This document shows, piece by piece, positions 1-17,224 of a DNA stretch of 64,000 nt. The notes below the pieces were generated by a model, which saw only the letters and a list, made by a program, of their open reading frames with translations, made no database searches and was not told the origin of the DNA. Numbering within the stretch: position 1 is the first letter of the stretch; the number at the start of each line of letters is the position of its first letter. The stretch covers positions 1-64,000 of the forward strand of contig JALNJZ010000006.1 of the NCBI GenBank assembly GCA_023261845.1, read 5' to 3'. Source of the DNA: Candidatus Terraquivivens tengchongensis. Its GTDB lineage: Archaea; Thermoproteota; Nitrososphaeria_A; Caldarchaeales; Wolframiiraptoraceae. Made by a program: the position numbers and the translations under genes.

Positions 1-24
1 ATGACGTCATGAACTTTTTCAAAT

Positions 25-993
25 CTTGCCGTCTTCTCTTCTATTTTTGAGTCATTGAATCCCACACACACAACAATTTGTCATGACGATAATAAGAAAA
101 GACTTGCCGTCTTCTCTTCTATTTTTGAGTCATTGAATCATGACCGCCTCGATTTTTCCTCCGAGAAGCTCACTAAATCTTGCCGTCTTCTCTTCTATTT
201 TTGAGTCATTGAATCTTAAAATTGAGAGTTTGAGCGCGGACCCGAGAAGCCGGTTCACCTTGCCGTCTTCTCTTCTATTTTTGAGTCATTGAATCTCTGA
301 TATCCACGCGTTCCACGGATGTCCGTCGGACTGGCCTTGCCGTCTTCTCTTCTATTTTTGAGTCATTGAATCTCCGAAAACATCAGTAGAAAGCTGCTTT
401 TCTACTATCTTGACTTGCCGTCTTCTCTTCTATTTTTGAGTCATTGAATCCACACATCTCTCCAGCTCCACCCCCTCAATGGATAATATTCACTTGCCGT
501 CTTCTCTTCTATTTTTGAGTCATTGAATCATCAACCTTTTCGAATGTTTTTTACGCGAGAAAGCATATCTTGCCGTCTTCTCTTCTATTTTTGAGTCATT
601 GAATCGAGCGTGAGCGAGCCATCCCCATCCGAGCCGTTCAGATCGCCTTGCCGTCTTCTCTTCTATTTTTGAGTCATTGAATCATAGTAAAAGCTGGCTC
701 AGCCCTGACCGACGAGATGACTGTCTTGCCGTCTTCTCTTCTATTTTTGAGTCATTGAATCTGAAGTGCGGGGAGGGGGTGTATACTATTATCTATTATA
801 GCTTGCCGTCTTCTCTTCTATTTTTGAGTCATTGAATCGAAAATGAGCGAATTGAGAAAAATGTCACATTTTCACTATATCTTGCCGTCTTCTCTTCTAT
901 TTTTGAGTCATTGAATCCGCAAAAAGAATAGTCAGCCTCACGAGACCTGTCGAAGACTTGCCGTCTTCTCTTCTATTTTTGAGTCATTGAATC
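25..993 (-). CRISPR. CRISPR array: 13 identical 37-bp repeats and 12 complete spacers (39-43 bp); continues beyond the left window edge
   Basis: Plus-strand repeat CTTGCCGTCTTCTCTTCTATTTTTGAGTCATTGAATC starts at 25, 103, 179, 259, 336, 414, 493, 569, 647, 725, 802, 881 and 957. The minus-strand repeat ends in ACGGCAAG, resembling Csm 5' tags such as ACGGAAAC. The leader is on the right, so the array is probably transcribed from the minus strand. Confidence 0.98.
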
Positions 994-1240
994 CCGGCTA
1001 CTTTTTTCCGGCTTTTTGGTTAAACAAGCTTTCTCCCGGCTTTTCTGGAAGGGTTTTCTCGATTATTGTCAAATTGTAATTGGATTTATAAGCATAATCG
1101 AGGGGCAGCAAGAGAGGTGGAATGTAGTCTCGGCTTCCTGTATCATCGGCTGGAAACTGGCTGCCGAGCGTTGAACAACGAATTTTCCAGCCGACTCATA
1201 AATTAGGCGACTCAAATAGCTAGCCCATTCCTTCAGCCCC
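994..1240 (-). promoter_or_regulatory. CRISPR leader with a TATA-like box
   Basis: Non-coding stretch between the last cas gene and the first repeat. Minus-strand CTTATAAA at ~1085-1092. Three CCGGCT(T-run) motifs within 50 bp of the first repeat. Confidence 0.65.
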
Positions 1241-2398
1241 CTACATGACGATTATCTGCCCACACCCATGGGGCTTATAGGACCCAACCGCATAATACTC
1301 TAAGGCTGCCAGACTTAACGCAAGATCCAAGTTCCTAACCTCGCATATAAAATCGAATACGGAGCCCGGCGAGATAGCCGCTTTAATCTCACGTCTTCTC
1401 CCGGTCTTTAAAGACCAGCCACCATAAACCTCATCATCTAAAGCATAATTCACCAATTTAATCTCAGGCAACGATGGCTTTCCCTTGTGGAAAGCCCAGC
1501 TGTACGCTCTCCTAGCACACTCTAGTAAACTGGACTCATCCAAATATTTTCCATCCAAAATCATCGGAGAAACAAGTCTAACCCTAAACCTCCTAGTATC
1601 AATATCTTCTGCACGCCTTTCCAAAATAGACATATCAACTTCCTCAACCCGCAAATCCTCGACGGCAACCTTACCTAAACCCCTGGACTTCGACCCACCA
1701 ATCCCCTCATCAGGCAAGGCCCTCCCAAGAACGTTTTTCAGCACGTCGACAGAATCGCCAAGATCCTCATGAACAATAATCTCAAAACCAAAGACACTTC
1801 CGCTTTGAATGACCTCCAAAGTATGAATCGTTCCGGCTTTTTCACCAGTAAGCGCTGAAACCTGTGCAGCCGAGCATAACATTCTGTCAACAGCCGTTAA
1901 AGTTATGCGAGAAATTCTAACAGGCACATGCTCAAAATCACCACAGGAATCGCACCTAAAACCCCGAAGGGGCTTTATTGTTCCGTGCTCCTTACAGGAT
2001 TCGCATACAGCGGGCGCGACAAAAGCATCGTAGATTCTCCCACACTGCGGATTACCACACTTATGAAGCGTCCTAGCAACAGGCCTAAACAATCCGCCAC
2101 ATTTCACATGTAACGGATACGCATACCTAAAGAAGACCTTAGAAGACTTACCAACCTCCTCACCAAACAACTGGGCATAGAGGCACTCATTGAAATATTG
2201 GCAGCTCTCATGCTGAACCAAAGGCCTATCAATCTTACAAACAGACCTCATCAATGAGAGGCCGACAGCCCCACGAAGAACCGCCCCAGGAATGAAAGGA
2301 TAACAATGCTTGATAACACCAGTCCTAGCGCCTGAACCTATATGTAACGGTGTAACAGCCCTCAAAATGCCCTTAATCTTATAGCAAAACACAACCAT
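1241..2398 (-). CDS. Type III RAMP protein, Cas7-Cas5 fusion (Csx10-like), with a Cys-rich insertion
   Basis: N-terminal RAMP motifs TPLHIG, IPGAVLRG and GIGGSKSRGLG. Second RAMP with RLVSPM, PGSVF and the C-terminal G-rich loop GSYKPHGCGQI. ATG at 2398 is preceded by GAGGG; the ORF track starts at TTG 2413. Confidence 0.85.
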   Translation of the reverse strand: MVVFCYKIKGILRAVTPLHIGSGARTGVIKHCYPFIPGAVLRGAVGLSLMRSVCKIDRPLVQHESCQYFNECLYAQLFGEEVGKSSKVFFRYAYPLHVKCGGLFRPVARTLHKCGNPQCGRIYDAFVAPAVCESCKEHGTIKPLRGFRCDSCGDFEHVPVRISRITLTAVDRMLCSAAQVSALTGEKAGTIHTLEVIQSGSVFGFEIIVHEDLGDSVDVLKNVLGRALPDEGIGGSKSRGLGKVAVEDLRVEEVDMSILERRAEDIDTRRFRVRLVSPMILDGKYLDESSLLECARRAYSWAFHKGKPSLPEIKLVNYALDDEVYGGWSLKTGRRREIKAAISPGSVFDFICEVRNLDLALSLAALEYYAVGSYKPHGCGQIIVM

Positions 2399-2413
2399 CG
2401 CATAGACCCTCAA

Positions 2414-3118
2414 CTACACCATAAGCCAGCGCTTAGCATCTTCTCCAGAGACGACCTTCTCGCCCTCAACACCAAGATAATAGCCAGCTGTCCGCTCCCT
2501 AACACAATCAATAGTAATTTTCACTTTACCGAAGCCGCGGGTTGAAGAGCCGCCTAAAGCAGAATCCTCAACAGACTTTAAGGCAGCCTTCAAAAGCTTG
2601 AGCTCATCGTCAGACAGATTATCAGCCACAATCTCCAAGCCAAACTTTGCCCCGGCTGGAACAGCCTCAATTGTATACAACGCATGTTTAGCAACAGCCC
2701 CTGTCCCACGGTTAATCGCTATTCCAGTCCTCTCAAGAAGCCTTTCAACGTTTTCAAGTGGATAAGCATCCCTAAACTTAATTTTACTCGCTAACGATAT
2801 TTTGCCAGCAGTCCCAAAAATCTTACAGCAGATACAGAAATCTTCTACTCGACTCTTTTTTGAACCACACATGTTATCTACGTTCGGCGGTTCACAAATA
2901 TCCATACCCATCTTCCGCGCAATCCTCTCAGCCTCAGTTCTAACACGCCCTTTCAACGATGAGCCTGGAATATAGGGTTGGCCTCTAGGGTCCCTGAGAA
3001 CTGGCAGATCTACCTCACCTATTTCAACGTCTAATTTGCCAGAGCCTATATGTAGCGGCGTAATAGCCTCCAAAGTCCCCGAAATTATTATCCGCCTTTC
3101 CAGCTTTTCAAAAACCAG
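2414..3118 (-). CDS. csm3: Type III Cas7 backbone subunit (Csm3-like)
   Basis: TPLHIGSG, EVDLPVLRD (catalytic Asp position), PYIPGSSLKG, CxxC, LGGSSTRGFG. The frame is open to a CTG at 3118 that lies behind a GGAGGTGA Shine-Dalgarno. Confidence 0.93.
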   Translation of the reverse strand: MVFEKLERRIIISGTLEAITPLHIGSGKLDVEIGEVDLPVLRDPRGQPYIPGSSLKGRVRTEAERIARKMGMDICEPPNVDNMCGSKKSRVEDFCICCKIFGTAGKISLASKIKFRDAYPLENVERLLERTGIAINRGTGAVAKHALYTIEAVPAGAKFGLEIVADNLSDDELKLLKAALKSVEDSALGGSSTRGFGKVKITIDCVRERTAGYYLGVEGEKVVSGEDAKRWLMV

Positions 3119-3140
3119 CCTTTTTCACCTCCTTCTTTAC

Positions 3141-3674
3141 TCAATATTCAATCCATATCTTTAGATTTAAATTTGCAAGCTCACCTATGCCCTTTAGAGC
3201 ATGCTCAATCTCCATAGCCAATGGCTTTGGAGGACCATGTAAACCCTTAACTCTAATCTTCATTTCAAGGTCTTTGCCATATAAATTCATTGAAACGCCG
3301 CCATATGTGAGGCCGTGCCTCTCAACAATATTCTTAATCGTTTTTTCACAAGCAGCCTTTAACTTTAATGTTGGCTCCTTTTCGAAATAATCATACAACA
3401 TGTTAGCGTAGAGCAGAACCCTCTCAAGCGAAACCCTATCATTAGCATACTTCTGACACAAATCAAGAATCTTTAAGAAGCCATTAAGGCCACGAACCTC
3501 ACGCCCAATCTGCCTTTTAATATAGGCCTCAACAAACGGCAACGGATTAGTTCTAACGAGCTTATAGAGTGTCTGAAGTTGTTTAGCACCCATGCCAGAA
3601 TCAACAGCTATCTTAGCTAGCCCCTCTCCCTCTAGCTTTAGCTCCCTTTCTCTTTCTTCTAACATTTTAGCCAC
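3141..3674 (-). CDS. Putative type III small subunit (Cas11/Csm2-like) with an extra C-terminal domain
   Basis: Helical N-terminal ~100 aa with QL..LY and YIKRQIGR patterns. Located between cas10 and cas7, overlapping the cas10 stop. Confidence 0.65.
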   Translation of the reverse strand: MAKMLEERERELKLEGEGLAKIAVDSGMGAKQLQTLYKLVRTNPLPFVEAYIKRQIGREVRGLNGFLKILDLCQKYANDRVSLERVLLYANMLYDYFEKEPTLKLKAACEKTIKNIVERHGLTYGGVSMNLYGKDLEMKIRVKGLHGPPKPLAMEIEHALKGIGELANLNLKIWIEY

Positions 3675-5574
3675 CTCCTTTAAATAAATTGTAAACCATA
3701 AAAGCTTTCACAAGAAGACCAGAATTAAGATATGAAAGCAATCTCTCCCCATATTTCCAATCAATAATCTCTCTCCCCATAGAATATTGAATCAAGGCCT
3801 CAGCCTTAACTGGGTTTTTACAGGCAATCTCAACTATGCGCCTAATCTGCGAAGAGGGAACATCAGCCTTACTCATAAAACCTATGATTTCAAGCAGAGT
3901 ATCCATTTTAGACCACTCCATAGAATCAACTTCATCAAGTTCGCTAGGGGTTATCCCTGTTCCCCCAATAGCAGCAAAGGCAACCCTATTTTTTCCCTTA
4001 CTTTTAGCCTTAGAAAGCAAGTAATTAGCAGACTCAACCCCAACATAGACAGGCATCTTATAGTGGAAGAAGGCAATCCCAGCCGACATAGTGCATTCAT
4101 CAGCCATCTCGTCTCTAAACTTCAGGTAAACCTTTTTAGCGGCTTCCAAAGCACGCTCCCCTGGAACAAAAGCCAAGAGATCGTCTCCGCCAGCATAAAC
4201 AACTCTACCCTTAAACTCGCCTATAATCTTTTTAAACTCCCCCTCACAAGTCTTATGAAGCAAGTTGCTCAGCGTCGATATTCTCGAAGGTGTGCTGGCC
4301 TTCCCAGCCTTTTTAAACCCAGCTCCTGACATGAAAAATCCAATATTATCTCCATCAGCCTTAATGCACGCAACAAAATCAGACTCGCCTCTTATATCTT
4401 CCAGCCATACGCCCTTTCCCTTCTCTCTCAATTCTCGGCATTCATCACATAACCTTTCAGGTCTAGGCGAGGCATCATATGGCAAAATTCTTTCTTTATC
4501 TTCGCTACTCCAAGTCTTAGCTCTACATACGTCACACGTCTCAGCCCCCTCAGGTAAAGACACTTGCCGTACTGGAATACGTTTACTTTTTTCAACCCGC
4601 AAATTCAGTTGAGCTTTCTCCCAAACAGAACCAAAGTCTCCGCGAATTTCCTCACCTCCAGCTTTAACATAGCTGACAGTAATTGTAATTCTGCCACCGC
4701 TCACCTCCTCAAAACTCTTCTTAACGCCTTCTAAAGCAGCTTGAACTTTATCTAACGGGCATAAAGCCAAAATGCTCCCACCAGCAGCAAACAGGACACA
4801 TTCAGGCCCAAGAAGATCCACTAGAAAATTCTTTGCAGTCTCCGTTGCCTCTTTAACTAAATCGCTCCTAGCCCTTAAGTCTGGAAGGCGCAGGGACTCG
4901 CCTATAAACTTGGATATTTTATCTGCATCACCACTTAGGAGTGCAAACTCGTAGTTCTCGGCATCTCTCCCCCTCCAGCCGCTCAAATAGATACATGTGG
5001 CAAAAGCGGCCGTTAATTTCATATGATCCCAAAGGGAAACGTCGTTAATGGGACTTCTTGTATCCGCGGGAACAAGGCGTAGCTTAGATTCCCTCTCAAG
5101 AAAATCGAAGATTTTTAGATATGTTTCCTTAGGCTTTTCATAGAAATTGCTAGCGATAGATTTTAAGTTTCTAAGAGTTTCATGATAAATGTAGGTTAGA
5201 TTATGGGCATCAAGCTTACACCTAATACGATCCTTTGACAAAACATGACTCAGTTCTACTGACGGAGATGGCAACGGTGCCCCACGCTCTGGCTCCTCAC
5301 GTCTATCGGCACCAGAAGCAAAATTATCAGCCAAGCAAACTATCTCCTCAACTGAGCTCTTAGGATACCATTCACCTGGATAATACTGACTAAAGTGGTG
5401 GCGCATAGCATGAAGGGCAATATCCTCGCCTAAACATTCCCTAACAAACTCGTACGTATAACGAACATGATCACTCCAAGGTCTCCCCTCAGCCCAGCAC
5501 TCCAGCTTGCCAATATCATGGAGCAAGGCCGATACACGTAAAATATCGAGCTCACTCAAAACGTTCACACTCAA
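3667..5574 (-). CDS. cas10: Cas10 (Csm1-like) with HD nuclease and intact GGDD palm
   Basis: ALLHDIGK...HH...ADN (HD domain), SLWDHMKLTAA, CDVC/CDEC zinc finger, KADGDNIG, YAGGDDLL. Confidence 0.95.
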   Translation of the reverse strand: MSVNVLSELDILRVSALLHDIGKLECWAEGRPWSDHVRYTYEFVRECLGEDIALHAMRHHFSQYYPGEWYPKSSVEEIVCLADNFASGADRREEPERGAPLPSPSVELSHVLSKDRIRCKLDAHNLTYIYHETLRNLKSIASNFYEKPKETYLKIFDFLERESKLRLVPADTRSPINDVSLWDHMKLTAAFATCIYLSGWRGRDAENYEFALLSGDADKISKFIGESLRLPDLRARSDLVKEATETAKNFLVDLLGPECVLFAAGGSILALCPLDKVQAALEGVKKSFEEVSGGRITITVSYVKAGGEEIRGDFGSVWEKAQLNLRVEKSKRIPVRQVSLPEGAETCDVCRAKTWSSEDKERILPYDASPRPERLCDECRELREKGKGVWLEDIRGESDFVACIKADGDNIGFFMSGAGFKKAGKASTPSRISTLSNLLHKTCEGEFKKIIGEFKGRVVYAGGDDLLAFVPGERALEAAKKVYLKFRDEMADECTMSAGIAFFHYKMPVYVGVESANYLLSKAKSKGKNRVAFAAIGGTGITPSELDEVDSMEWSKMDTLLEIIGFMSKADVPSSQIRRIVEIACKNPVKAEALIQYSMGREIIDWKYGERLLSYLNSGLLVKAFMVYNLFKGGG

Positions 5575-5601
5575 AATATTATTATTTTTCGCTAAAAAGG
5601 G

Positions 5602-5610
5602 TATAAAATA
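5602..5610 (-). promoter_or_regulatory. TATA box of the cas operon
   Basis: Minus-strand TTTTATA ends 28 nt upstream of the cas10 start, which fits a leaderless transcript. Confidence 0.55.
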
Positions 5611-5709
5611 CTATCGATTCTCTTCTTTCAGCGAGAAAACTTGAGAGGGGCGCTACATGTTCTAATAAAATTATAGCCTAGAAATCTTTAAAATCGAATT
5701 CGTCCGGTT

Positions 5710-6062
5710 ATGCCTAAGTGGTACATGGTAAGAAGCTTACACTTACAAATCAAATACTTGGCTAGGAACGAGAAGGGCCAGCGCGACGAGATAGTCGCCT
5801 ATGCAGGCGTCGAGCCTGAGGCTATGTCTAGAAAGACGAGGGGTCCTAAAAAGCCTCAGCCTTTTAAGGAGCGATAGGGGACGGCTACAGGTTCACGGTG
5901 AAAGGTGTACGGTTATTCAAGAAGTGGTTGCCAGCATGGCGGGGTAAGCGAAAGGAGACCTCCAGCAGTGTAGTGAAAGCCTTAAAAGCGATAAAGGGGC
6001 TGAAGGACGGGAAGTGTATCACAGAAGGGTTGGGTAAACTGAAAACCGGAACAGGCATATAG
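5710..6062 (+). pseudogene. Frameshifted winged helix-turn-helix protein
   Basis: Removing one G from GGGG at 5840-5843 joins RDEIVAYAGVEPEAMSRKTR to VLKSLSLLRSDRDGYRFTVKG, a typical wHTH helix-plus-wing pattern. Confidence 0.45.
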
Positions 6063-6328
6063 AATCCGGGCTCAGGACTCCGTGAATCATGCGGAGAAGA
6101 GGTTTCGGAAAGGTACGTAGCGAGGACTAAATGGGATATTGGATTCTTCTGCAGAGTATGCATGAACGAATGGATAGCATAAGCTCGGATGTTAAGAGTG
6201 TTACGAGTTAATTTTCGAGTTTTAGGAGACTGAATTGAAGGTTGAATGCTAGCTATCAAATAAATGCTTCGATGTAAGCGTTCAAAGAATGCTCGAGGAA
6301 GAGCTAAAGAGGCTTAAGAACACTATCG

Positions 6329-7579
6329 CTACGAGTGCATGTATTCCCTCAATAAAGGAAGACATTCCTTTATTAGATGACCGCAACGCTGTCTTATCGA
6401 TCCGTCCTCATCGTTTAGGTACGCTTCACCTATCACCGTTATTAACTTACATAACTCCTTCATCATATCCTTCAGCTCAGCTATCTCGGAATTTTTCTTT
6501 TCGTCGAGCTCCAGGGCCACCTTTAGGTCCAAAGGTGCTCCGCACCTTCTGCAGAAGCTTATGCCAGGTGAGTTCTGTTCCTTACACCTTTGACATATTA
6601 TAAGCCTGAATTCCTTAACCTCCAGATCCTCCTCGATGGGCATCCCGCTTGCCCTTAACAAGGCTTTATCAAGATCCCTGCCGCTAAGATGTACGTATAC
6701 AGCAGCCATCTCAGAGTCTTGCTTCCAACCAAAGTACTCCTTCATCTGGGCCTCCGTAAGTATATTGGCCAGATGACTTGCCCTAGAATGTCTGAATAGA
6801 TGCGGATATATGTGCTTCTTTATTCCTGCTCTCTTTGCTAACGTCTTCAACATTTTTGCTGCAGCAGGATAGTCCAAAGGCTTAAGGTAGTTCTTCGTCC
6901 ACAATCCTATCCAGAGCGGCGCATCGGGATCATTGCGCAAAGGATGGTTATCTAGCCATTCTGCCAGCATGGGCGCTGAAGCTACTATCCTTATCCTTCT
7001 CATACCAGTCTTTCCGCTTACGATGATAGCAGCACCATATTCATCAAACGTTACGTTCTTGATCTTTAAGCCAAGCATCTCGCCTATTCGGGCACCAGAT
7101 TCATAAAGCACTAGGACAAAGGCCTTATCCCTAAGGTTTGTAGCCTTGCTTGCCATGAGCTTTACTTCCTCCTCGGTGAGGAGCTCTTCAGGAAGCTTGC
7201 ATTTTCCATAGCTCTTTATCTTAATCCAGCTAACCTCAGGCGGATTATCATTATCTCTTAACCATTTGTAAAATCTCCTGACCGCAACTTTGTAATCGTG
7301 CTTAGTCCAGTCGCTGTACCCTTTCTCTTCGAGGCTGGACAATGCAGCGCGTACATCAGATTCATTAACTTTGTCAAGAGCCTTCTTAACGATGCGTGCA
7401 AAGCTTACCATATGATGGGTGTATTTTATCATCCTTAATGGGCCTATACCTTCAGAGCGGAGAAAGCCAATGAAAGACCTTATGAGAGCTGCATTTCTCT
7501 TTCCGACCCGGTCCTCGAGTTTATCCAGTACAATCTTTAACCTATCTTCATGGCTGCGATGCTTACGTCCTTTATCCAT
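6329..7579 (-). CDS. Tyrosine recombinase/integrase with a C-terminal zinc ribbon
   Basis: SGARIGE, HLFRHSR and YVHLS catalytic motifs; CQRC/CRRC ribbon. Starts ~60 bp downstream of the tRNA-Thr 3' end (ORF track start 7624). Confidence 0.93.
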   Translation of the reverse strand: MDKGRKHRSHEDRLKIVLDKLEDRVGKRNAALIRSFIGFLRSEGIGPLRMIKYTHHMVSFARIVKKALDKVNESDVRAALSSLEEKGYSDWTKHDYKVAVRRFYKWLRDNDNPPEVSWIKIKSYGKCKLPEELLTEEEVKLMASKATNLRDKAFVLVLYESGARIGEMLGLKIKNVTFDEYGAAIIVSGKTGMRRIRIVASAPMLAEWLDNHPLRNDPDAPLWIGLWTKNYLKPLDYPAAAKMLKTLAKRAGIKKHIYPHLFRHSRASHLANILTEAQMKEYFGWKQDSEMAAVYVHLSGRDLDKALLRASGMPIEEDLEVKEFRLIICQRCKEQNSPGISFCRRCGAPLDLKVALELDEKKNSEIAELKDMMKELCKLITVIGEAYLNDEDGSIRQRCGHLIKECLPLLREYMHS

Positions 7580-7640
7580 TCTAATGGAGCAGTCCGCTTT
7601 TGCGTTATTTAATGCTAGCGGCATTTGAACTCAATTTAAG

Positions 7641-7713
7641 AGCCTCGGGCGGGATTCGAACCCGCGACCGCCGGCTTACCAAGCCGGCGCCCCGCCAGCT
7701 AGGCTACCGAGGC
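7641..7713 (-). tRNA. tRNA-Thr(GGT)
   Basis: GCCTCGG acceptor stem, CCGGC-TT-GGT-AA-GCCGG anticodon arm, GGTTCGAATCC T-arm. No intron. Confidence 0.95.
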
Positions 7714-14482: not shown

Positions 14483-17224
14483 TTGCCTAGGGTCGCGGTT
14501 ATAGATTATGATTTCTGCCAGCCGACAAAATGCGGCCAGCCTTGCATATCGTTCTGCCCACCCGTGAGAAACAAGATAGAGGCGATCAAGCTCGGCGATA
14601 AGGGATTTCCAGTAATAAACGAAATACTGTGTATCGGGTGCGGCATATGCCTCGACCCGAACGCACCAGTGATAACGGATGCTGGCTTAAAGCCCATTAA
14701 GGAAATAAGAGCGGGCAATATGGTACTCACCCATAAAGGAAGGTTTAAGACAGTTATCTCGAAAAGCGTCAGGCTGTATACTGGGCCCCTTTATAAGGTA
14801 AGGGTTCGCGGCATACCGGACGTGGTAACGCTAACCGAGGAACATCCGCTACTCGTCGCCTCGAAAGGTCGAGAAGAGAACGATTTTACGTTTACGTGGA
14901 AAACCCCGCCTGAGCTGAAAGAAGGTGATTATCTTTGTGTTCCGATAATCATGGGCGACTGTGGTTTAGAAGAGCCTATCGTTACCGCCTCGGATGGATC
15001 GGCTCAATTGTTATCCCTTCAGTTAACGTTTGAGCTCGGCATGGTATTCGGCTACTACCTTGCTAGAGGAACCTTGGAGCATGGAAAAATCGTATTTAGG
15101 TTCGATGAAGAGGGGTTGACTAAGAAGGCCGAAGGATTTCTGGAGAAATGTTTTGGCGTGAAAACAATACGGGAGGGTTCAAACTCGTTCGCCGTCAGCT
15201 CAGAGTCGCTGGCCAACCTGCTCCACAGCCTTCTCGGAGATTCTGAAGATTCTAAGAGGGTGCCGGCGAGCCTTCTATCGGCACCTTTAGACTTCTTAAG
15301 GGGTTTCATCTCGGGATTCATGGAAGCCAAGGGTTGTCGTGAGATCCCATGCAACTCAACGAACGACGCATACATCTTAAAGTTGATGGGGGCTAGGGTC
15401 GGCTTACCGCTGTCAATAAACAAGGTTGCCAACGAGTACGTGATTTCGATTGGTGACGGCAGAGAAAGCATATCATCGCAGGGTTACCAACTACATCCAA
15501 TAGACTCAGTGAGTGTTGAGTGTGTAAAGGATTACTTGGTAATGAACTTGGAGGTCAAGGACGACGAGACATACAACGTAGCAGGACTTGTAGTCCACAA
15601 CTGCGTTAAGAAGTGCCCCTTCAAGGCCATCACGATAGTTAACCTAAGCGAAGAACTCGGTAAGGACCTAACGCATCAATACGGCGTGAATTCATTCAGG
15701 CTTTACAGGCTTCCGTACCTGGAGCAGGGGAAGGTCGTCGGCATAATAGGAAAGAACGGCATAGGCAAAACCACTGCGTTACAGATACTTGCGGGCCGAA
15801 TCGTTCCTAATCTGGGCAAGCTTGATGGAGAGGCATCTTTACACGAAGTTGCTAAAGTGTTCAGGGGTTCATTGATACAGGATTACTTGACGAAGCTTGC
15901 CAACGGTAACGTGAAAATCTCGTATAAGCCGCAATACATCGATATGATACCAAAGGTCGTTAAGGGTAAAGTGGGTACGATTTTATCAAAGATGGGGCCC
16001 GAAGAACGTGTTAACAAGCTAGTAGACATACTGGAGCTCCGTAACCTGTTGGACAGGGATGTTTCTGTGCTTAGTGGTGGTGAGCTCCAACGTCTTGCGA
16101 TAGCGGCTTGTCTTGCGAAGAATGCTAATACTTTCATCTTAGACGAGCCGACAAGTTTTCTCGACATCAAGCAAAGGTTCAGAGCCGCCTCGGCAATTAG
16201 AGATGCGTCACATGAGGGTATGGTTCTCGTATCCGACCACGACCTCGCTGTTCTCGATTACACATCGGACAAGATCTTCGTGTTTTACGGCGAACCCGGA
16301 GTATACGGCATCGTCGCAGGCCCTTATGGCGTTAGGGAGGGCATAAACATATTCATAGAAGGATACATACCAGACGAGAACGTAAGGTTTAGAAGCGAAA
16401 GAATATCGTTCCAGTTAAAGCCTCCAACGGAAACTTATGAAGAAGGTTATTTGACGCTTTGCTGGCCCAGCATGACGAAAACCTATGATGTCTTTAAGCT
16501 GGAGGTCGAGGAGGGGTGCATATATCCGGGCGAGGTAATCGGTATAGTTGGTCCGAACGGTATAGGCAAGACAACATTCATAAAGATATTGGCAGGTATC
16601 GAAAAGGCGGACAGAGAGTTTCAACTGCCTTACAGGACGATAAGCTACAAGCCCCAGTACCCAGAGGTAAAGGACGAGAATGTTGAAGCCGTTCTTAGGG
16701 AGGCGGCCAGGAGCAAGTTCGATACCGACCTTTACCAGTCAGAGCTGATTAGACCGTTAGGTTTGCACAAGCTACTTGAAAGGGAAGTTAAAGAGCTGAG
16801 TGGTGGCGAGCTTCAGAAGGTTGCGATAGCGGAGGCTCTTTCAAAGGATGCCGAAATTTACCTGATAGACGAGCCGAGCGCCTACTTGGACGTTGAGGAA
16901 AGATATACAATTGCAAAGTTGTTAAAGAGGATAACACGTGAAAGGAAGGCCTACACCTTCCTCGTCGAACACGACCTCATGGTGTTGGACTTTGCATCGA
17001 GCAGACTAATGGTCTTCTCGGGCGAGCCTGGTATCAACGGACGTGCCAGCAAGCCCATGGATCTTAGGTCAGGGTTCAACGCTTTTCTAAAAGAGATGGG
17101 TGTCACTTTCAGGAGAGACCACCAGACATTTAGGCCAAGGGCAAACAAACCTGACTCTAGGTTGGACAGGCAACAAAAGGCAATGGGAGAGTATTACTAC
17201 CCAGTGCCGACGTCCGAATTATAA
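14483..17224 (+). CDS. Ribosome recycling ATPase ABCE1/RLI, interrupted by an intein
   Basis: N-terminal 2x[4Fe-4S] Cys motifs, QYGVNSFRLYRLP, two ABC NBDs (GKNGIGKTT, GPNGIGKTT, LSGGELQ), RPRANK. The spliced length is 595 aa. Confidence 0.95.
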   Translation: MPRVAVIDYDFCQPTKCGQPCISFCPPVRNKIEAIKLGDKGFPVINEILCIGCGICLDPNAPVITDAGLKPIKEIRAGNMVLTHKGRFKTVISKSVRLYTGPLYKVRVRGIPDVVTLTEEHPLLVASKGREENDFTFTWKTPPELKEGDYLCVPIIMGDCGLEEPIVTASDGSAQLLSLQLTFELGMVFGYYLARGTLEHGKIVFRFDEEGLTKKAEGFLEKCFGVKTIREGSNSFAVSSESLANLLHSLLGDSEDSKRVPASLLSAPLDFLRGFISGFMEAKGCREIPCNSTNDAYILKLMGARVGLPLSINKVANEYVISIGDGRESISSQGYQLHPIDSVSVECVKDYLVMNLEVKDDETYNVAGLVVHNCVKKCPFKAITIVNLSEELGKDLTHQYGVNSFRLYRLPYLEQGKVVGIIGKNGIGKTTALQILAGRIVPNLGKLDGEASLHEVAKVFRGSLIQDYLTKLANGNVKISYKPQYIDMIPKVVKGKVGTILSKMGPEERVNKLVDILELRNLLDRDVSVLSGGELQRLAIAACLAKNANTFILDEPTSFLDIKQRFRAASAIRDASHEGMVLVSDHDLAVLDYTSDKIFVFYGEPGVYGIVAGPYGVREGINIFIEGYIPDENVRFRSERISFQLKPPTETYEEGYLTLCWPSMTKTYDVFKLEVEEGCIYPGEVIGIVGPNGIGKTTFIKILAGIEKADREFQLPYRTISYKPQYPEVKDENVEAVLREAARSKFDTDLYQSELIRPLGLHKLLEREVKELSGGELQKVAIAEALSKDAEIYLIDEPSAYLDVEERYTIAKLLKRITRERKAYTFLVEHDLMVLDFASSRLMVFSGEPGINGRASKPMDLRSGFNAFLKEMGVTFRRDHQTFRPRANKPDSRLDRQQKAMGEYYYPVPTSEL
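14648..15601 (+). mobile_element. 318-aa intein with a degenerate LAGLIDADG region, in ABCE1
   Basis: Begins CLDPNAPV, block B LTEEHPL, ends VVHN followed by +1 Cys. LAGLIDADG-like helices FGYYLARG and FISGFMEAKG. Confidence 0.92.

Follow-up and report, generated by a model that had tools for sequence, protein, structure and literature searches.

Among the reduced type III CRISPR-Cas (short palindromic repeats that are clustered and regularly interspaced, with their associated proteins) systems, III-F has a Cas10 whose palm is inactive. A review table (PMC8036902) gives the III-F locus of Thermotoga lettingae as Tlet_0097-0100 with the target entry 'DNA?', and the passages of the 2025 classification that deal with III-G through III-I describe reduced type III systems in which the Cas10 palm is inactivated or lost, the CARF/SAVED partners are gone, adaptation genes are missing and some members use CRISPR RNAs (crRNAs) from other loci (PMC12669027). 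Two other subtypes are also close, namely III-D, of which csx10 is the mark according to PMC11026444 and which we compared through the Synechocystis III-Dv (8s9t) and SsoCsm (8bmw) complexes, and III-A, compared through those of S. epidermidis (7uzw), S. thermophilus (6nud) and T. onnurineus (6mur). Here we describe a four-gene type III locus with its array at the very start of a 64-kb stretch of archaeal DNA, the first 64 kb of contig C9 counted from its base 1 (G000:C9:1-64000; hereafter the window), which is confirmed as a genuine, unusually small CRISPR-Cas module of a hot-spring archaeon. With a probability of roughly 0.8, we take it to represent a compact type III module that is conserved among thermophilic archaea, that consists of cas10, a cas11-like gene, cas7, csx10, a leader and an array, and that in its relatives is mostly followed by csm6 or another CARF gene. 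This reading draws on the gene content and its conserved order, the catalytic residues, the neighbours of the related loci, the location of cas6, cas1 and cas2 elsewhere in the genome and the polarity of the leader.

The genome is archaeal, comprises 1.22 Mb in 14 contigs and is 99.4% complete by marker genes, and the sequencing runs that hold DNA of the window are labelled as hot-spring metagenomes. Four successive minus-strand open reading frames (ORFs), the third of them called at 2414-3073, are followed by the leader and the array (Table 1), and they provide components that define type III, a Cas10 with palm/cyclase domains, a Cas7 with a catalytic acid and a Cas5, along with a candidate for the Cas11 small subunit. 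Near-full-length orthologues of this Cas10 (40-78% identity) were found in 8 other genomes among 401 of the phylum, none of them among the six congeneric genomes or the 24 that share the family, and a Cas10-only search of the genome contigs gave one truncated locus. The order cas10, small subunit, cas7, csx10 is found in all seven genome loci that have context. Together with 79 loci from a metagenome scan, these make up 86 related loci, which include at least three near-duplicate pairs (L035/L099, L050/L067 and L076/L077), and 35 of them hold both a full cas10 and a full csx10. Exactly the two other genes lie between these in every one of the 35, the apparent deviation of L024 being an artefact of ORF picking, and by gene content (no Csx19 model was used) none has a Csx19-like conserved extra gene. 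The effector of four genes proposed in the initial annotation, its gene and array positions, which were re-located as minus-strand ORFs and repeats, and its compactness have thus all stood, the last against a comparison with homologous loci, none of which carries more subunits.

The surroundings of the module are likewise recurrent in its carriers, which are mostly Bathyarchaeia-labelled metagenome-assembled genomes (MAGs) from hot springs. In 30 of 42 loci, related 37-nucleotide (nt) repeats on the cas strand, G[AT]TTCAATGACTC...GAAGAC.G.AA[GC], start no more than 1.7 kb past csx10, and a CARF gene encoding either a Csm6 (CARF, 6H, HEPN) or a Cas_APE2256 CARF protein follows in 16 of the 21 loci whose sequence runs 1.8 kb or more beyond that point; two further loci have one just upstream of cas10 and three (L023, L076, L077) have none. 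Some related loci add Csx1, a 115-amino-acid (aa) STIV B116-like (DUF1874) protein, of a family that we take to be ring nucleases, or a fusion of Csm6 with a phosphoesterase. The 115-aa protein occurs in six loci, and the fusion, a Csm6 of about 735 aa whose N-terminal domain is a calcineurin-like phosphoesterase, is seen at L049:6523-8718, L062:10232-12442 and similar loci. Upstream of cas10, 16 of 29 related loci have a divergent winged-helix gene and 13 of them a gene for a DEDD/RNase_H_2-type exonuclease (for instance L025:6526-7994, L005:8530-9995 and L028), both of which are missing from the window; a role of the exonuclease in trimming the 3' ends of crRNAs, Csm5 being absent, is pure speculation. 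Neither cas6 nor cas1/2 is part of the module in the related loci, and apart from the 115-aa protein and genes specific to single loci no other unassigned neighbour family recurs.

The large subunit keeps both of its active sites. Cas10 carries an HD domain (PF01966, 1.5e-6) with the HD motif at residues 19-20 and a second palm domain (PF22335, 5.9e-35) with GGDD at 462-465, and among 35 aligned orthologues H59, H60, G462 and G463 are invariant while H19, D20, D464, D465 and the four zinc-finger Cys are at least 90% conserved, so that the earlier claim of intact HD and GGDD sites extends across the family. The protein is Csm1-like, since it passes the cut-off of the NCBIfam Csm1 equivalog TIGR02578 (215.5 bits, cut-off 170) and its closest relatives among solved chains are III-A Csm1; because these have 757-791 residues, Cas10 is short at 635. 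The PADLOC models agree, those of III-A reaching 1.3e-35 and those of Cas10d 9e-17, and there is a marginal match to 8bmw_K (2.4e-4) and one to the Cas10a|Cas10f model (7.3e-5) across just 56 residues. Orthologues match at 1e-133 or better and other Cas10 proteins of the phylum sample only partially at 1e-13 to 1e-15, as does the Csm2-linked Cas10 of one genome of the same phylum (G129; 4e-14); the clade is therefore well separated, also from the latter. The alignments of the orthologues begin at residue 5-6, and the start of cas10 may therefore lie within 5559-5574.

The last gene was initially read as a Cas7-Cas5 fusion, a reading that we rejected because the product resembles a single Cas5 both in size and in its two domains, superposes on Cmr3 and lacks an Asp-x-Pro catalytic motif in its sequence. 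Instead, the 390-aa protein matches the PADLOC Cas5_IIId models over its full length (2.4e-18), and its AlphaFold2 (AF2) model, with a predicted local distance difference test score (pLDDT) of 86, has as its top Foldseek match 8s9t_A, the Csx10-containing chain of the Synechocystis III-Dv complex (3.4e-19), followed by Cmr3 (superposed whole, template modelling score normalised to the target 0.65), a type VII Cas5 and Csm4. Matches to TIGR02674 (Csx10; 61.1 bits, cut-off 177.3) and TIGR01903 (Csm4; 14 bits, cut-off 55) remain below the cut-offs. The family alignment shows invariant Cys and His residues in the insertion at about residues 100-165, and its Csx10-like homologues, when grouped at 90% identity, make up at least 187 clusters. 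Sequence and model thus point to a single two-domain Cas5 of the Csx10 kind with a zinc-ribbon insertion, whose sequence likeness to Csm3 covers the RAMP core that both have. Its probable start is the ATG at 2398, giving 385 aa as in the 385-aa members of its cluster.

Cas7 passes the Csx7 equivalog TIGR02581 (135.3 bits, cut-off 108), is also near Csm3, and falls below the cut-off of TIGR01899 (Csm5; 27 bits, cut-off 38.3). Its catalytic acid is an Asp, as in 16 of 24 orthologues. If a canonical start codon is required, the longest cas7 ORF runs from TTG 3073, and the orthologues start 15-25 residues further upstream. The conserved N-terminus is encoded in frame from a CTG at 3118 (window 3116-3118) behind a Shine-Dalgarno motif, GGAGGTGA, and the start is thus probably this CTG, 15 codons upstream of the TTG. 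The cas7 of a contig that is 98.7% identical (L027) also appears to lack a canonical start, since only a 219-aa ORF from an internal start was found there.

Judged by these comparisons, the module pairs a III-A-like Cas10 with a III-D-like Cas5 and fits none of the tested subtypes fully. III-A is approached through the Csm1-like Cas10, a Cas7 near Csm3, the csm6 accessory of the relatives and a faint Csm2 likeness of the small subunit; it does not fit because there is no Csm4, no Csm5 (the genome has two RAMP genes) and no recognisable Csm2, the Csm2 Pfam model giving no match on the module, and the Cas10 is shorter than solved Csm1. III-D is approached through the Csx10 kind of Cas5 and the Csx7/Csm3-like Cas7; it does not fit because there is one Cas7 gene as opposed to the several Cas7 paralogues or fusions of III-D, no conserved Csx19-like gene, a Cas10 closer to III-A and a Csx10 match below cut-off. 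With III-F the locus shares the reduced, four-gene format, but III-F and III-G through III-I are all misfits because the GGDD palm is conserved here and CARF partners are retained in the relatives. A literature search that covered passages of the text of PMC12669027 found no description of this gene set, and the conserved module family is apparently undescribed.

The gene of the small-subunit candidate (177 aa) always lies between cas10 and cas7 in the related loci, and its product, probably starting at the ATG at 3665 (relatives begin from residue 4), is modelled by AF2 at pLDDT 97.5 as a five-helix bundle (residues 1-119) followed by a small beta-beta-alpha-beta domain (121-177). Three lines point to Csm2. 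Profile matches to three Csm2 structures (E 0.03-0.15, sub-threshold) cover the same helical region each time; an hhalign comparison of the family with seven archaeal Csm2 proteins (probability 38%, E 3.4e-4) lines up the conserved QLR motif and Arg positions of the family with those of Csm2; and the Pfam family matched by most family members is Csm2, in 3 of 46. In addition, complex prediction of Cas10 with the 177-aa protein scored 0.60 as compared with 0.00 for the best of three controls, with 100% contact agreement between runs and a partner pLDDT of at least 86. Among 80 solved complexes 58 attained this mark, as did 2 of 110 mismatched pairs, with scores of up to 0.60 accounting for only 7 of the 80 solved complexes and for both of the passing mismatches. 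The result lends weak support, and the pass may also mirror likeness to solved Csm complexes. A likeness to the C-terminal domain of zinc transporters and MamM (best Foldseek E 0.007) was read as a generic alpha/beta likeness of residues 121-177. We consider the protein a probable divergent Cas11 with an added domain. The alternative, that it is no Cas11 homologue, is rather unlikely; in its favour, there is no Cas11, Csm2 or Cmr5 match at threshold (HMM, hidden Markov model, and Foldseek) despite a model of such confidence, the C-terminal domain is not present in Csm2 chains of 121-126 residues, and the family is small, with 52 representatives at 50% identity among 1.84 billion proteins, a search of the ESM Atlas returning only its own unnamed archaeal cluster. 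We nevertheless favour the divergent Cas11, as Csm2 recurs as a weak match in three independent tests over the same helices, with QLR and Arg positions aligned, and the position and size of the gene fit cas11.

The array shows signs of recent use. Its 12 whole spacers are unique and 39-43 nt long, and bases 1-24 are part of a further spacer; since the window begins at base 1 of the contig, the array has been cut by the assembly, and because the repeat was not found on the other 13 contigs by exact and 18-mer searches, its far side is not in the assembly. Against Rfam, with E values up to 0.1 admitted, positions 1-6500 matched neither CRISPR-DR nor any other family. Contigs of two other hot-spring runs (X1 and X2) carry almost unchanged cas genes, with 10 differing letters in 4,560 bases in X1, and their spacers beside the repeat at 957-993, on the leader side, differ from those of the window; X1 has one spacer more than X2, in that a 37-nt spacer and a further repeat stand between this repeat and the spacer that directly adjoins it in X2. 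Because strain-specific spacers adjoin the repeat at 957-993, the leader was placed at 994-1240, as in the related loci, where the array lies on the cas strand right after csx10, and the differing leader-side spacers indicate recent, polarised acquisition. In a metatranscriptome run (X14), three contig pieces with 1-5 differing letters cover csx10, cas7 and the gene of the small subunit in part; contigs of an RNA library are no proof of transcription and were not used.

Two spacers may link the array to a type I-D system. Spacer 3 (216-258, 43 nt) shares 34 nt (225-258) with a contig of X2, where they stand between reverse-complement I-D 24-nt repeats and end at the same base as spacer 3, and spacer 11 (839-880) shares 18 identical bases with spacer 4 of the genome's own I-D array (C2:34879-34913), in the same orientation relative to the repeats and with starts one base apart. 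By our own estimate about 4e-5 such 18-base overlaps are expected by chance (BLAST E 1e-6). One adaptation module might feed both arrays from the same invaders, which we offer only as a hypothesis because there are two observations and the leaders are dissimilar. The spacers had no self-match in the genome outside the arrays.

Homology to the closest related loci (L028 and L005) ends about 80 nt upstream of cas10 (Table 1), and beyond it stands a gene for a 431-aa tyrosine-recombinase-like protein (6329-7624) that abuts a tRNA-Thr(GGT) at 7640-7713, where the relatives have their winged-helix and DEDD-exonuclease genes. A stretch of about 44 nt on the downstream side of this tRNA, which takes in the first codons of the integrase, recurs in near-identical form beside a tRNA-Thr(CGT) on contig C2 (C2:39420-39535), with some 700 nt between that site and the end of the I-D array; because of this recurrence, both CRISPR loci are seen to lie at integrase/tRNA-Thr junctions. 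A second tRNA-Thr 3' end that could serve as attachment (att) site was not found within the window. The turnover of spacers by the leader from strain to strain, the overlap of spacers with the I-D array and the junction that replaces the usual upstream genes are new here. Such a junction, together with the absence of a CARF gene from the assembly, a Cas7 without canonical start codon and the lack of the system in all six genomes of the same genus, might suggest that this copy is a decaying or orphaned remnant, moved by an integrase, deprived of its regulator, exonuclease and csm6, and no longer working. We find this improbable, given four open frames with intact catalytic residues, 13 of 13 repeats identical with unique spacers, a Shine-Dalgarno motif ahead of the cas7 CTG, and near-identical cas genes elsewhere that adjoin arrays with different and extra leader-proximal spacers and hence point to recent acquisition.

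The genes that an effector of this kind would need for crRNA processing, adaptation and signalling appear to lie elsewhere. With the models tried, the window holds no cas6, cas1/2, Csm5 or CARF gene, in line with the initial annotation, which had placed the processing and signalling genes in trans or beyond the array. Matches to Cas6, Cas1 and Cas2 occur genome-wide on contig C2 only, in a type I-D locus with Cas10d, Csc2, Csc1, Cas3, Cas6, Cas1, Cas2 and a 68-repeat array of 24-nt repeats; Cas4 was not found in the genome. A single cas1 and a single cas2 stand beside four arrays with unrelated repeats of 30, 24, 24 and 37 nt (C1:31-995, C2:34675-38755, C6:63897-64813 and C9:25-993, respectively), of which that on C1 likewise begins at a contig end. 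Among the nine carrier genomes, six have a Cas6 match (TIGR01877), always on another contig, and the three without one are 86-96% complete; the narrower PADLOC model PDLC01127 matched only two of the nine and PF01881 missed this genome's own Cas6. The expected position of the missing genes is thus borne out in the carriers for cas6 and, by the csm6/CARF genes after the array, in the relatives for the effector, but in this assembly itself cas6 was found and CARF was not. Since the relatives carry csm6/CARF after the array, just where this assembly ends, the absence of csm6 is uninformative, and the notion of an effector-less locus as a real trait is not supported: the array reaches the contig start, the missing CARF gene of the window is largely an assembly-edge effect, and the stripped look of the locus mainly reflects an assembly that stops inside the spacer array. 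That the compactness itself is an artefact of this kind, with Csm5, further Cas7s, Csx19 and cas6 of an ordinary III-A or III-D locus lying off the contig, is very improbable, for although the leftward sequence is certainly missing, relatives with contigs beyond the array have csm6 or another CARF gene next and no RAMP gene, no further neighbour family recurs with the exceptions named above, and PF03787 matches only two RAMP genes, those of Cas7 and Cas5 (csx10), in the whole genome.

Several observations weigh against the conserved, functional module that we favour. The 177-aa protein matched no family at threshold in scans of HMM libraries, its model had no fold match in the PDB at E<0.001 (Foldseek), and all of its Csm2 signals are sub-threshold. 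At the catalytic site of Cas7, seven of the 24 orthologues have Glu and one has a gap, and no ATG, GTG or TTG is present at the conserved N-terminus of Cas7. The 37-nt repeat is unlike the 24-nt I-D repeat save for a loose 3' resemblance, and the leaders of the type III, I-D and C6 arrays have no similarity, so that processing and adaptation by the I-D proteins are unproven. Searches of the 14 contigs for a CARF, Csm6 or Csx1 gene (PF09670, PF09651, PF23400 and tblastn of five Csm6/CARF proteins from related loci) found none, which would leave a cyclic oligoadenylate (cOA) signal without known receiver in the genome. Lastly, no target was found for the spacers, whether in viral contigs with the spacer cores or in phage records by blastn of the array.

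By homology to Csm and Cmr complexes, we infer the stoichiometry of the complex, its activities and its choice of Cas6, and a canonical, Csm-type mechanism with cOA signalling is expected. The leader (994-1240) would drive minus-strand transcription of the array, and its repeats would be cut by a Cas6 encoded elsewhere, for which the only candidate in the genome is that of the I-D locus on C2. At its 5' handle the crRNA would be held by Cas10 and Csx10, the backbone would be built from the single Cas7 in several copies and a second filament from copies of the small subunit, and the complex would lack both a cap subunit of the Csm5, Cmr1 or Cmr6 type and a Csx19. Binding of a complementary transcript would lead to cleavage by Cas7 at 6-nt steps and would also switch on the HD nuclease of Cas10 and the synthesis of cOA at GGDD, and this signal could then activate a Csm6-type CARF-HEPN RNase, the gene for which would here, if present, lie beyond the start of the contig.

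Table 1. Features of the type III locus, in coordinates of the 64-kb window.
Feature	Position	Strand	Remarks
cas10, large subunit, 635 aa	3667..5574	-	HD nuclease (N-terminal), palm 1, zinc finger, palm 2 with GGDD, C-terminal helical domain
Small-subunit (Cas11/Csm2-like) candidate, 177 aa	3141..3674	-	five-helix bundle 1-119 and beta-beta-alpha-beta domain 121-177
cas7 (Csm3/Csx7 type), single backbone subunit gene	2414..3118	-	catalytic acid in VDLPV motif
csx10-type cas5, 390 aa as called	1241..2413	-	Cys-rich zinc-ribbon insertion, about residues 100-165
CRISPR leader, 247 nt	994..1240	-	TATA-like motif CTTATAAA (1085-1092), roughly 92-99 nt upstream of first repeat
CRISPR array	1..993	-	13 identical 37-nt repeats (25-993), 12 whole spacers, 24 nt of cut spacer
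cas10 upstream region	5575..5662	-	TATA-like TTTTATA at 5602-5608; homology to related loci stops at about 5650-5663

Elsewhere in the window, an ORF of 913 aa (14483-17224), read from its translation only, carries an intein-like insertion some 300 aa long, with Cys as its first residue and HNC at its end. Its N-terminal ferredoxin-type Cys motifs and C-terminal twin ABC ATPase blocks are presumably features of ABCE1.

Beyond the conserved module itself, the locus could possibly stand for an unnamed type III lineage at the level of a subtype, a tentative proposal that we would put well short of even odds. It would be characterised by a short III-A-like Cas10 with active HD and cyclase sites, a zinc-ribbon Csx10, one Cas7 and a new small subunit, in which a Csm2-like bundle is joined to an alpha/beta domain that is a possible stand-in for Csm5 or Csx19, and it would travel as a mobile cassette of effector plus array plus csm6 that borrows the Cas6 and the adaptation machinery of the I-D system, the latter selecting for a protospacer-adjacent motif (PAM); the borrowing is suggested because spacers share a boundary across the two arrays. 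If RNA cleavage, the HD nuclease and cOA signalling are all kept, these four small thermostable proteins would make a complex that is easy to reconstitute and that could reveal which Csm/Cmr parts, such as the 3' cap subunit and Csx19, are dispensable, and how a divergent small subunit works. In addition, the cross-array spacer overlaps make it possible to test whether a type I adaptation module feeds a type III array. The module family is common in hot-spring MAGs labelled as Bathyarchaeia; for 23 complete Bathyarchaeota genomes the 2025 classification reports no CRISPR-cas loci (PMC12669027).

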